Positions 25,247 through 26,063 of a stretch of 64,000 nucleotides of DNA are shown piece after piece. The notes beneath the pieces are model-generated. The model saw only the letters and a program-made list of their open reading frames with translations. It was not told the DNA's origin and ran no database searches. Source of the DNA: Escherichia coli (GTDB lineage Bacteria > Pseudomonadota > Gammaproteobacteria > Enterobacterales > Enterobacteriaceae); NCBI RefSeq assembly GCF_003334355.1, contig NZ_QOWP01000005.1. One strand, given 5' to 3'. Position numbers and translations under genes: made by a program. Each line of letters starts with the position of its first letter. The stretch's first letter is position 1.

Positions 25247-25262
25247 GTATTTTACAGGCAAT

Positions 25263-25290
25263 AAAAAACCGCCGAATTTGGCGGTTTTTT
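25263..25290. terminator. bidirectional intrinsic terminator (sseA 3' end; also 3' end of minus-strand sRNA candidate 1)
   Basis: AAAAAACCGCCGAATTTGGCGGTTTTTT: A-run, GC stem, T-run. Confidence 0.8.
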
Positions 25291-25362
25291 ATTGCTAGTC
25301 TGGTTCGCGGCCTTTCCAGCAGGTTGACTTGTGTTACATGAGCAACGCAGGTGCTTCACAGC
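25263..25362 (-). ncRNA. candidate ~100-nt sRNA, copy 1 (TimR-like antitoxin candidate)
   Basis: minus-strand -35 TTGACA / 17-bp spacer / -10 GAGTAT, then about 100 nt ending at the intrinsic terminator; contains GGAAAGGCCGCG complementary to the plus-strand mRNA leader. Confidence 0.35.
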
Positions 25363-25368
25363 AAAACA

Positions 25369-25397
25369 ATACTCACCAGTAACTCTCTTTTTGTCAA
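25369..25397 (-). promoter_or_regulatory. putative sigma70 promoter for sRNA copy 1
   Basis: TTGACA (25392..25397 complement), 17-bp spacer, GAGTAT (25369..25374 complement); the -35 lies inside the conserved palindrome. Confidence 0.35.
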
Positions 25398-25587
25398 GCA
25401 AAAGAGAGTAATTATTGTTTATTTAGCGTATTATCGACACCGGCCCTTTCCGCCGTGTTCGGTAATAAAATAACCTGGCTTATTAGTCCGAATTCAGACA
25501 AATATAAACAAATCCTGCTCAAAATTAAAAATTCTAACCGGTAAAAGATATTACTTAAACATGTAAATTCACTTTCCTTTAAAAAAC

Positions 25588-25616
25588 AAAAAACCGCCAA
25601 AATCAGGCGGTTTTTT
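25588..25616. terminator. bidirectional intrinsic terminator (second copy)
   Basis: AAAAAACCGCCAAAATCAGGCGGTTTTTT. Confidence 0.75.
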
Positions 25617-25684
25617 GTTGCTGGTCCGGTTCGCGGCCTTTCCAGCAGGTTGTATTACCGTAGTAATGCAAGCGCGTCTCAGCG
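25588..25684 (-). ncRNA. candidate ~100-nt sRNA, copy 2 (TimR-like antitoxin candidate), divergent from the ryfA-like transcript
   Basis: minus-strand TTGACA-N17-GAGTAT promoter (25691..25719), terminator at 25588..25616; contains GGAAAGGCCGC. Confidence 0.4.
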
Positions 25685-25690
25685 GAGACA

Positions 25691-25719
25691 ATACTCGCCA
25701 GTAACTCTCTTTTTGTCAA
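25691..25719 (-). promoter_or_regulatory. putative sigma70 promoter for sRNA copy 2
   Basis: TTGACA (25714..25719 complement), 17-bp spacer, GAGTAT (25691..25696 complement). Confidence 0.35.
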
Positions 25720-25808
25720 GCAAAAGAGAGTTATTATTGTTCTGTTAGTGTATTATCCACTGCGGCCCTTTCCGCCGTCTCGCAAACGGGCGCTGGCTTT
25801 AGGAAAGG

Positions 25809-25883
25809 ATGTTCCGTGGCCGTAAATGCAGGTGTTTCACAGCGCTTGCTATCGCGGCAATATCGCCAGTGGTGCTGTCGTGA
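25809..25883 (+). CDS. small ORF 1, 24 aa (MFRGRKCRCFTALAIAAISPVVLS), hypothetical membrane peptide
   Basis: AGGAAAGG directly upstream of ATG; hydrophobic; below ORF-track size cutoff; an upstream CCCTTTCC could sequester the SD. Confidence 0.3.
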   Translation: MFRGRKCRCFTALAIAAISPVVLS

Positions 25884-25907
25884 TGCGGTCTTCGCATGGA
25901 CCGCACA

Positions 25908-26033
25908 ATGAAGATACGGTGCTTTTGTATCGTACTTATTGTTTCTGGTGCGCTGTTAACCGAGGTAAATAATAACCGGAGTCTCTCCGGCGATAATTTA
26001 CTGGTGGTTAACAACCTTCAGAGCAGCAAGTAA
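25908..26033 (+). CDS. small ORF 2, 41 aa (MKIRCFCIVLIVSGALLTEVNNNRSLSGDNLLVVNNLQSSK), candidate type I toxin-like peptide
   Basis: same frame as ORF 1, separated by a TGA and 4 codons; alternative ATG at 25896 gives 45 aa; about 15-residue hydrophobic N-terminal segment; no strong SD. Confidence 0.4.
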   Translation: MKIRCFCIVLIVSGALLTEVNNNRSLSGDNLLVVNNLQSSK

Positions 26034-26063
26034 GCCCGAATGCCGCCCTTTGGGCGGCATATT

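Follow-up and report, generated by a model that had tools for sequence, protein, structure and literature searches.

We looked at the spacer between sseA and sseB in a stretch of Escherichia coli DNA of 64,000 nucleotides (nt) (contig NZ_QOWP01000005.1, assembly GCF_003334355.1), called the window below, and found that this spacer is a timP/TimR (ryfA) type I toxin-antitoxin locus. In K-12-like E. coli, the locus very probably has a composite, 'one and a half module' make-up. In the mechanism that we propose, ryfA would be the mRNA of TimP, an inner-membrane toxin of 41 amino acids (aa), and its 5' untranslated region (UTR) would hide the Shine-Dalgarno sequence (SD) in the last of four stem-loops (SL1 to SL4). 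By homology with Salmonella, the 5' end of TimR, a divergent small regulatory RNA (sRNA) of ~100 nt, would pair with the loop and the 5' arm of SL2, and this pairing would destabilize the SL1-SL3 pseudoknot and block timP translation. The distal antitoxin sRNA, TimR-1, which has a class A seed, is predicted to form a near-perfect duplex with the local timP and may be the main antitoxin. TimR-2, its proximal paralog (seed class C), is expressed in K-12 and is the cognate of the timP of other lineages; it would be an orphan or a weak second repressor. The upstream module has lost its toxin, probably by deletion, its promoter, a 17-nt stump, an sseB scar and IS128 remaining. The anatomy, the family membership, the predicted pairings, the covariation and the population frequencies are shown by the analysis, whereas the toxicity of E. 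coli TimP, its repression by TimR and the identity of the copy acting in vivo are what we infer.

In Salmonella, TimP is a small inner-membrane protein, toxic when over-expressed (PMC7667032), and TimR represses timP translation by base pairing (PMC7667032, PMC11228461). The Salmonella timP 5' UTR folds into SL1 to SL4, with the SD trapped in SL4, and a pseudoknot between SL1 and SL3 is required for its translation. By binding the SL2 loop when the mRNA is in its active conformer, TimR destabilizes this pseudoknot, RNA processing being unnecessary (PMC11228461). Accounts of the system are those of Fris 2017 (PMC5333039), Andresen 2020 (PMC7667032), Eleftheraki & Holmqvist, PNAS 2024 (PMC11228461) and NAR 2026 (PMC13000454), the last two treating the pseudoknot and the structural switch. 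Since the system is published, mechanistically dissected and annotated at these K-12 coordinates, the core finding adds nothing new. The new content is modest and consists of the identity of TimR-2 with ECS011/IS129, the three classes of seed and target, a best match that is distal in ~30% of E. coli, and IS128 as debris.

The sseA-sseB spacer and the ryfA/timP unit

The stop codon of sseA lies at 25246 and the end of sseB, on the minus strand, at 26064, so that the spacer covers 25247-26063 (817 bp). An earlier note, made from the letters of this DNA, had held that the spacer is not simple non-coding DNA, and the gene ends, the repeats and the sRNA and ryfA matches bear this out. Two families of direct repeats were detected, one linking 25263-25326 to 25589-25652 (84% identity) and the other 25366-25456 to 25688-25778 (90% identity). 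They delimit tandem units with a spacing of 322-326 bp, in agreement with the two tandem modules of ~325 bp described in that note. Terminator-like sites are enriched in the spacer, where seven were counted versus 1.7 expected from shuffles. The spacer is 100% identical to that of strain MSI001 and 99.8% identical to that of K-12 strains, and it was matched in all 5,426 complete E. coli genomes. A mobile-element origin was considered and is ruled against by the absence of plasmid matches (0) among the E. coli records of the collection. Beneath the spacer match, timP is annotated by the Prokaryotic Genome Annotation Pipeline (PGAP) in 8/8 E. coli records inspected, and the RefSeq features of K-12 MG1655 at this place are timR (b4811), ryfA (b4440) and timP (b4812), with one timR only. 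The timP/TimR (ryfA) type proposed earlier for the locus is thus supported by Rfam ryfA, NCBIfam TimP and the RefSeq K-12 annotation.

The ryfA RNA, or timP mRNA (25762-26065, plus strand; Rfam RF00126), is 304 nt long. Aligned to Rfam ryfA, as the earlier note had advised, it gives a full-length match of 314.2 bits, for a gathering score of 80, over model positions 1-296 of 296. Its -10 box, TATTAT, is at 25751-25756. The RNA consists of a structured 5' UTR of 146 nt (predicted SL1-SL4), the timP open reading frame (ORF) and a terminator. The nested stems of the 5' UTR are present in the Rfam alignment and are kept across genera; the SL1-SL3 pseudoknot was shown in Salmonella, with E. coli included in the covariation alignment of the authors (PMC11228461). 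The intrinsic terminator (26040-26060, plus strand) has a 9-bp stem with seven GC pairs followed by a T-run and corresponds to the terminal hairpin of the Rfam family, and the 3' end of the RNA overlaps the sseB stop codon by 2 nt. The plus-strand transcript of ~300 nt with its own terminator abutting the sseB stop, as first predicted, is therefore ryfA.

The timP gene (25908-26033, plus strand; RefSeq b4812) encodes a 41-aa protein, MKIRCFCIVLIVSGALLTEVNNNRSLSGDNLLVVNNLQSSK, which matches NCBIfam NF040796 (toxic_TimP) with 86.8 bits (cutoff 45) over residues 1-40 of 41. RefSeq calls the K-12 protein a 'putative toxic protein'. Its N-terminus is hydrophobic and putatively signal-like, with a mean Kyte-Doolittle value of 1.76 for residues 1-20. 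In the 15 ryfA sequences compared (14 other records and the window), the ATG at 25908 and the timP frame are kept in 15/15, and the N-terminal segment is hydrophobic in 15/15, with means of 0.91-1.78. The in-frame ATG at 25896, which gives the 45-aa form of a study of uropathogenic E. coli (UPEC), is absent in Rahnella and Erwinia.

Two small hydrophobic ORFs had been announced for this transcript. TimP is real, and the upstream ORF of 24 aa (25809-25883) shows no coding conservation. We rejected the latter as a second peptide: it has no family match and crosses the hypervariable SL2. Its frame stops after five codons in E. whittamii and, judging by their sequence, in class C E. coli, and an ATG is lacking in Yersinia, Erwinia and Citrobacter. 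The Salmonella upstream ORF, which overlaps the TimR site, is dispensable, as a start-codon mutant translates timP normally (PMC11228461). An ORF of 48 aa (25826-25972) was also rejected as a second peptide, having no family match. TimP is the sole credible ORF of the locus.

According to another explanation, E. coli ryfA would mainly be a trans-acting RNA involved in stress resistance, fimbriae and biofilm; TimR would serve it as a sponge or a partner, and the ORF of TimP would matter little. We consider this rather unlikely, even though the ryfA phenotypes of UPEC CFT073 and avian pathogenic E. coli (APEC) persist when the ORF is disrupted, a ryfA-timR double mutant is wild-type-like (PMC8205139, PMC13188913) and RyfA is bound by ProQ (PMC10664665). 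The TimP ORF, its start and its hydrophobic N-terminus are kept from Escherichia to Yersinia, Rahnella and Erwinia, with a C-terminus that varies in the protein, and the ORF passes a curated NCBIfam cutoff. Moreover, the two roles are compatible, given that dual-function RNAs exist.

Two TimR genes and their predicted pairing with SL2

For the antitoxin, we built a covariance model of TimR (R1) from 13 sequences of other species, the window being excluded; its source genera were Escherichia, Citrobacter, Superficieibacter, Yersinia, Rahnella and Erwinia. R1 matched the minus strand of the proximal copy at 25587-25687 with 101.6 bits and that of the distal copy at 25262-25366 with 87.1 bits, so each module does hold the minus-strand sRNA that the idea of a duplicated antitoxin-like module called for. 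No third TimR of comparable score was found by R1 in the 64-kb window, all other hits being of at most 30 bits and corresponding to terminators or chance-level matches. A permissive E-value scan of Rfam 15 revealed no TimR family; sub-threshold matches to ohsC, OrzO-P, AgrB and RNAI all lie on terminators and were treated as chance. TimR-1 (25263-25362, minus strand) is the timR gene b4811 of RefSeq K-12. TimR-2 (25589-25685, minus strand) corresponds to ECS011/IS129 and is unannotated in RefSeq K-12. The TimR architecture comprises a single-stranded 5' seed, a small hairpin, an invariant stem-loop GCUGG-AAAGGCCGCGAACC-CCAGC and an intrinsic terminator. TimR-1 and TimR-2 have their 3' two-thirds in common and differ in their 5' ~20 nt, that is, in the seed.

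In Salmonella, the TimR site was mapped to SL2 (PMC11228461). In the window, duplex predictions and covariation place the TimR target in the 5' arm and loop of SL2 (25825-25845, plus strand; class A, AUGCAGGUGUUUCACAGCG). With this local SL2, TimR-1 is predicted to form, through its 5' 19-20 nt, 19 contiguous base pairs (-42.1 kcal/mol; 20/21 in register). For TimR-2, an interrupted duplex with 11 contiguous base pairs is predicted (-33.4 to -33.7 kcal/mol; 18/21 in register, with three GU pairs and two mismatches). The cofold free-energy differences (ddG) are -19.3 for TimR-1 and -11.9 for TimR-2. When paired with class C timP, TimR-2 reaches a predicted 17 contiguous Watson-Crick base pairs and -44.0 kcal/mol. 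Scanning the whole region upstream of ryfA, we found that the best complement of SL2 is TimR-1, 400 nt away (-40.4 kcal/mol), and the second best TimR-2, 77 nt away. The directly upstream, divergent position is held by TimR-2 only, its 5' end lying 77 nt before the ryfA +1; in the case of TimR-1, a TimR gene intervenes.

To follow this pairing across species, the TimR seed was joined to the SL2 target and 21 intermolecular pairs were counted in 16 TimR/timP pairs from six genera (13 other species and E. coli classes A, B and C). In this set, 92.3% of the cells are paired versus 30-50% in slid registers, on the understanding that the K-12 row is the distal copy, chosen for its complementarity, and the other rows are the adjacent gene, taken through the conserved motif. 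Compensatory double changes were seen in 10 of the 21 pairs, over 55 cells, and neither the pairing nor the covariation score was equalled in any of 500 shuffles. These comparative data strongly support selection on the TimR-SL2 pairing, with the loop positions as specificity determinants. One C. amalonaticus locus (L105), with a shortened ryfA 5' UTR and no clear TimR, was left out. A pattern scan of genome contigs with GCGGTCNNNGCANNGACCGCAC proved too degenerate, as it returned at least 120 loci, mostly chance matches in GC-rich genomes; the matches listed included 14 usable Enterobacterales loci and none from Salmonella.

Both TimR genes have a promoter on the minus strand. That of TimR-1 (25369-25397) has its -35 box TTGACA at 25397-25392, a 17-nt spacer and its -10 box GAGTAT at 25374-25369; the annotated 5' end of TimR-1, 25362, is 7 nt downstream of the -10 box. 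That of TimR-2 (25691-25719), included in a direct repeat, has TTGACA at 25719-25714 and GAGTAT at 25696-25691, and the 5' end of ECS011 is at 25685. A single spacer base distinguishes the two promoters, which suggests that TimR-1 is expressed like TimR-2. In the 13 species, TTGACA is invariant and the -10 box has A2 and T6.

Expression evidence concerns the proximal copy. ECS011 was sequenced from K-12 by Shinhara et al. 2011 (CCGCUGAGACGCGCUUGCAUUACUACGG...CAGCAACAA; PMC3175480), and both its reads and its old K-12 coordinates (2651730-2651800) map exactly to 25615-25685 on the minus strand, which is TimR-2. A Northern probe specific for the ECS011 seed revealed bands of ~95 and ~100 nt in K-12, and ECS011 was equated with IS129 and called cis-antisense to IS128 (PMC3175480). 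No link of ECS011/IS129 to the TimR family was found in the literature. The K-12 reference annotation thus shows one of two TimR genes, and the omitted copy is the one detected in RNA. In practice, a deletion meant to remove 'timR' or the sequence 'upstream of ryfA' from a K-12-like strain takes out different antitoxins according to the coordinates used. Besides these data, the tiling-array candidate C0614 (U00096.2 2651474-2651560) maps to 25359-25445 on the minus strand, just upstream of the TimR-1 5' end and over the divergent promoter region of module 1, and is probably an imprecise early detection of module 1 transcription.

Several observations weigh against TimR-1 as the main antitoxin, and against the toxin-antitoxin scheme as a whole. 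No expression dataset for TimR-1 RNA in K-12 was found, TimR-1 is missing from the candidate list of PMC3175480, and RefSeq K-12 labels b4811 a 'putative small regulatory RNA TimR'. In 13/13 other species, the best SL2 complement is the adjacent gene, 60-110 nt upstream; with the cognate TimR being toxin-proximal in all of them, K-12 would be the exception. The duplex and cofold energies are simple thermodynamic predictions that ignore the pseudoknot and binding kinetics. The class A target GGUGUUUCACAG (25828-25843) is G/U-rich and pairs in register at 19/21 positions with TimR-B and 18/21 with TimR-C, which means that TimR-2 may be a competent repressor. Finally, the UPEC/APEC ryfA phenotypes were reported to be ORF-independent (PMC8205139).

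In a different assignment, TimR-2 (ECS011/IS129) would be the working or an equal antitoxin of K-12 timP, the distal copy would be auxiliary or silent, and RefSeq would mark the wrong or lesser copy. TimR-2 indeed occupies the canonical divergent position, 60-110 nt upstream as in 13/13 other species, is the copy detected in K-12 (PMC3175480) and retains 18/21 in-register pairs with the local SL2. We nevertheless regard this assignment as unlikely on balance. The two internal mismatches and three wobbles of TimR-2 fall at the strongest co-varying loop and seed positions, and it finds its perfect partner in other strains, namely class C timP. Across genomes, TimR-A (2,020) and timP-A (1,975) counts track each other, as expected under co-selection. 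In S. dysenteriae, RyfB1 lowers RyfA1 but not RyfA2, without cross-repression by the sibling antitoxin (PMC5333039), so differences of this size can give specificity. TimR-1 is kept here as the probable main antitoxin of the local timP.

The locus contains further sequence features. Terminator T1 (25258-25295) is bidirectional and common to sseA (plus strand) and TimR-1 (minus strand); its palindrome of 19 nt, GCAATAAAAAACCGCCGAA/TTTGGCGGTTTTTTATTGC, is of the perfect type and is flanked on either side by A/T runs. Terminator T2 (25585-25619), also bidirectional, serves TimR-2 (minus strand) and IS128 (plus strand) and contains a 14-nt perfect inverted repeat, AACAAAAAACCGCC/GGCGGTTTTTTGTT. 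A palindrome, TAACTCTCTTTT-N8-AAAAGAGAGTTA, lies at 25702-25733 with a module 1 twin at 25380-25409 and, in both modules, covers the back-to-back -35 boxes of TimR (TTGACA) and ryfA (TTGTCA). It is kept within Escherichia and not in other genera, and is a possible operator for a regulator of both promoters. The TimR internal loop GGAAAGGCCGC (25302-25312 and 25626-25636, minus strand) is near-invariant, with one substitution in R. bruchi. It is complementary to the timP mRNA 5' end (GCGGCC-C-UUUCC; 25762-25773, plus strand) and mimics the lower stem of SL1 on its 3' strand, a stem that Salmonella requires for translation. The loop might thus serve for a second contact with the mRNA or for the binding of a protein. 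It barely varies, and the few timP-side changes opposite it are uncompensated.

Seed and target classes and the upstream relic

From the alleles of eight E. coli records, we derived three classes, A, B and C, in which timP target and TimR seed co-vary. Class A (target GCAGGUGUUUCACAGC, seed GCUGUGAAGCACCUGC) is that of K-12 timP and the distal TimR, class B (target CAGGCACCCCACAGUG, seed CACUGUGGGGUGCCUG) is O157-like, and class C (target GCAAGCGCGUCUCAGCG, seed CGCUGAGACGCGCUUGC) is found in single-module strains such as 442/2. The seed of K-12 TimR-2 is identical to the TimR seed of these single-module class C strains. Predicted duplex energies are -38 to -44 kcal/mol for cognate and -14 to -34 kcal/mol for non-cognate combinations. 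Class B and C targets pair with foreign seeds at 15/21 positions in register only, and the wobble pairing of the class A target with foreign seeds suggests that class A may be a promiscuous 'lock'.

Class-specific 51-nt queries were run against the 5,426 genomes, yielding marginal counts, not per-genome co-occurrence, of 1,975 genomes for the timP target and 2,020 for the TimR seed in class A, 383 and 580 in class B, and 2,900 and 4,546 in class C. The TimR-A seed matches its query at 99% identity or more in 1,623 of the 2,020 genomes. TimR-C without timP-C makes an excess of ~1,650 genomes. This agrees with the counts for the whole 817-bp spacer at 99% identity or more (1,516 genomes), for the K-12-type junction, which links the TimR-C seed with a class A SL2, at 95% or more (1,595) and for the IS128 core at 95% or more (1,759), indicating that ~30% of E. 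coli (~1,600 genomes) have the K-12 arrangement.

Some strains depart from these arrangements. In strains 2900 (L007:414-515) and PKF11 (L008:1047-1148), a TimR with a fourth seed, GACGAGAUACACUUGCAGUAAUAC, and a shortened first hairpin is located upstream of IS128, the composite order being fourth seed type, IS128, TimR-C and timP-C. No timP target matching this seed was found in these two loci, so that this TimR appears to be another orphan antitoxin. In E. coli 06-00048 (NZ_CP015229.1, L005:1200-1300), the TimR seed and the timP target constitute a 16-nt plus-strand direct repeat, CAGGCACCCCACAGTG. The ~160 nt between the repeat copies are deleted, a loss that takes in the two promoters, the 5' end of TimR and nt 1-66 of timP, and an IS3-family element sits inside the TimR terminator; this locus is a natural double knock-out that apparently arose by recombination across the antitoxin/target repeat. 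In the K-12-like NZ_CP025851.1 (~1253129-1255105), the TimR-A seed and IS128 core are ~1.5 kb further from TimR-C/timP than in K-12, which suggests an insertion, probably of an insertion sequence element, between the IS128 core and TimR-2.

Module alignment revealed the relic of a lost upstream toxin gene at 25429-25469 on the plus strand. Three elements compose it: a ryfA-type -10 box, TATTAT, at 25429-25434; the first 17 nt of ryfA, left as a stump at 25440-25456; and a scar of 14 nt derived from sseB, TGTTCGGTAATAAA (25456-25469), identical to window positions 26134-26147, a stretch 70-84 nt inside the sseB 3' end. From the relic promoter to T2 extends IS128 (25422-25630, plus strand), a putative transcript that matches Rfam RF00125 with 262 bits, a score expected by construction as RF00125 was seeded by K-12-like sequences of the same locus. 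The AT-rich core of IS128 (25470-25585, ~30% GC) is present in 2,158 of the 5,426 genomes, in multi-module alleles only, and directly upstream of a TimR terminator in every multi-module locus examined. No similarity of this core to the rest of the module was detectable. Descent of the core from the sseB 3' end by decay was discarded beyond the scar: the identity is of 14 nt only, and the remainder was equalled by 191 of 500 shuffles. In K-12, a strand-specific Northern blot failed to reveal IS128, which the authors suggested to be an artefact (PMC3175480).

The order in strain 2824 (L006) is timP-B, an 87-nt sseB 3' fragment, IS128 core, TimR-A, timP-A and sseB. Read from its gene order, this is a full tandem duplication, of a unit including the sseB end, as in S. 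dysenteriae. In the K-12 type, the first 17 nt of the upstream ryfA are joined to the last ~14-20 nt of the sseB fragment, and the best explanation of this fusion is that ~350 bp, with the upstream toxin gene, were deleted in a 2824-like ancestor. The presence of a class A toxin beside TimR-C could plausibly result from gene conversion between timP copies before the deletion; another route would be the exchange of the timP-sseB segment by homologous recombination. IS128 may be seen as what is left of a decayed module, not as an sRNA gene in its own right.

One could extend this to TimR-1 and consider the whole upstream unit (TimR-1, stump and IS128) as a decaying remnant whose seed match is a historical accident, for example of gene conversion. 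Its toxin is gone, a deletion scar is present, IS128 was undetected by strand-specific Northern blot (PMC3175480) and no expression data were found for TimR-1. This seems quite improbable to us, because TimR-1 keeps its internal stem-loop, its terminator and an intact TTGACA promoter, one spacer base off that of the expressed copy. Its class A seed is also kept, at 99% identity or more to the query in 1,623 of 2,020 genomes, with counts that track class A timP.

We tentatively propose, at rather less than even weight, that E. coli has at least three lock-and-key classes and that the K-12 type has two keys for one lock, TimR-2 being a weak second repressor that uses the wobble-rich class A target, or an 'anti-addiction' element. 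The structural part of this proposal is shown by the present comparison; the functional part is speculation. If true, an 'anti-addiction' TimR-2 would neutralize class C timP alleles gained by recombination. In any case, the E. coli seed and target classes are ready-made compensatory variants for tests of antitoxin specificity and cross-talk.

Comparison with known systems

The locus has been met under several names. IS128, IS129, ECS011 and C0614 share its coordinates, and ECS011/IS129 is exactly TimR-2, but they entered the catalogues as orphan sRNAs without an assigned function (RF00125, PMC3175480). 'RyfB1/2' is the Shigella-only name of TimR homologues (PMC5333039). The minus-strand sRNAs were also considered as the old K-12 'ryfB/ryfC', and this was rejected. 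We take ryfB/ryfC to be the shoB/ohsC locus elsewhere in the genome. K-12 ryfB was taken off the sRNA lists because it encodes a small protein (PMC3318445).

The closest system is Salmonella timP/TimR, with which the E. coli locus shares the ryfA RNA family, the TimP protein family, the sseA...sseB neighbourhood, a divergent sRNA whose 5' end pairs, here by prediction, with SL2, and probably an SD sequestered in SL4. Contrarily to E. coli, with two TimR seeds for one toxin, Salmonella has a single module and a TimP of 38 aa. Its TimR adjoins the toxin, whereas the best-matched TimR of E. coli, known here from sequence, is 400 nt upstream. S. dysenteriae, with ryfA1/ryfB1 and ryfA2/ryfB2, has the entire module duplicated in tandem between sseA and sseB and a short 'variable region' of RyfA that overlaps the RyfB complementarity, with antitoxin specificity (PMC5333039). 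S. dysenteriae and strain 2824 keep both toxins, while the K-12 type is without the upstream one and, unlike S. dysenteriae, has a remaining toxin that matches the upstream antitoxin and not the adjacent one.

Among more distant systems, zor/orz is also found as tandem paralogs with limited cross-talk. Like timP/TimR, tisB/istR-1, shoB/ohsC, zorO/orzO and dinQ/agrB have an mRNA for a small hydrophobic toxin with a long structured 5' UTR, and a divergent, non-overlapping antisense RNA that acts in trans through 15-20 nt of complementarity (PMC7667032). These four systems have, however, no kinship in sequence or structure to timP/TimR, and timP differs from them by the absence of RNA processing, by its pseudoknot (PMC11228461) and by the putative Sec-type signal-like N-terminus of TimP.

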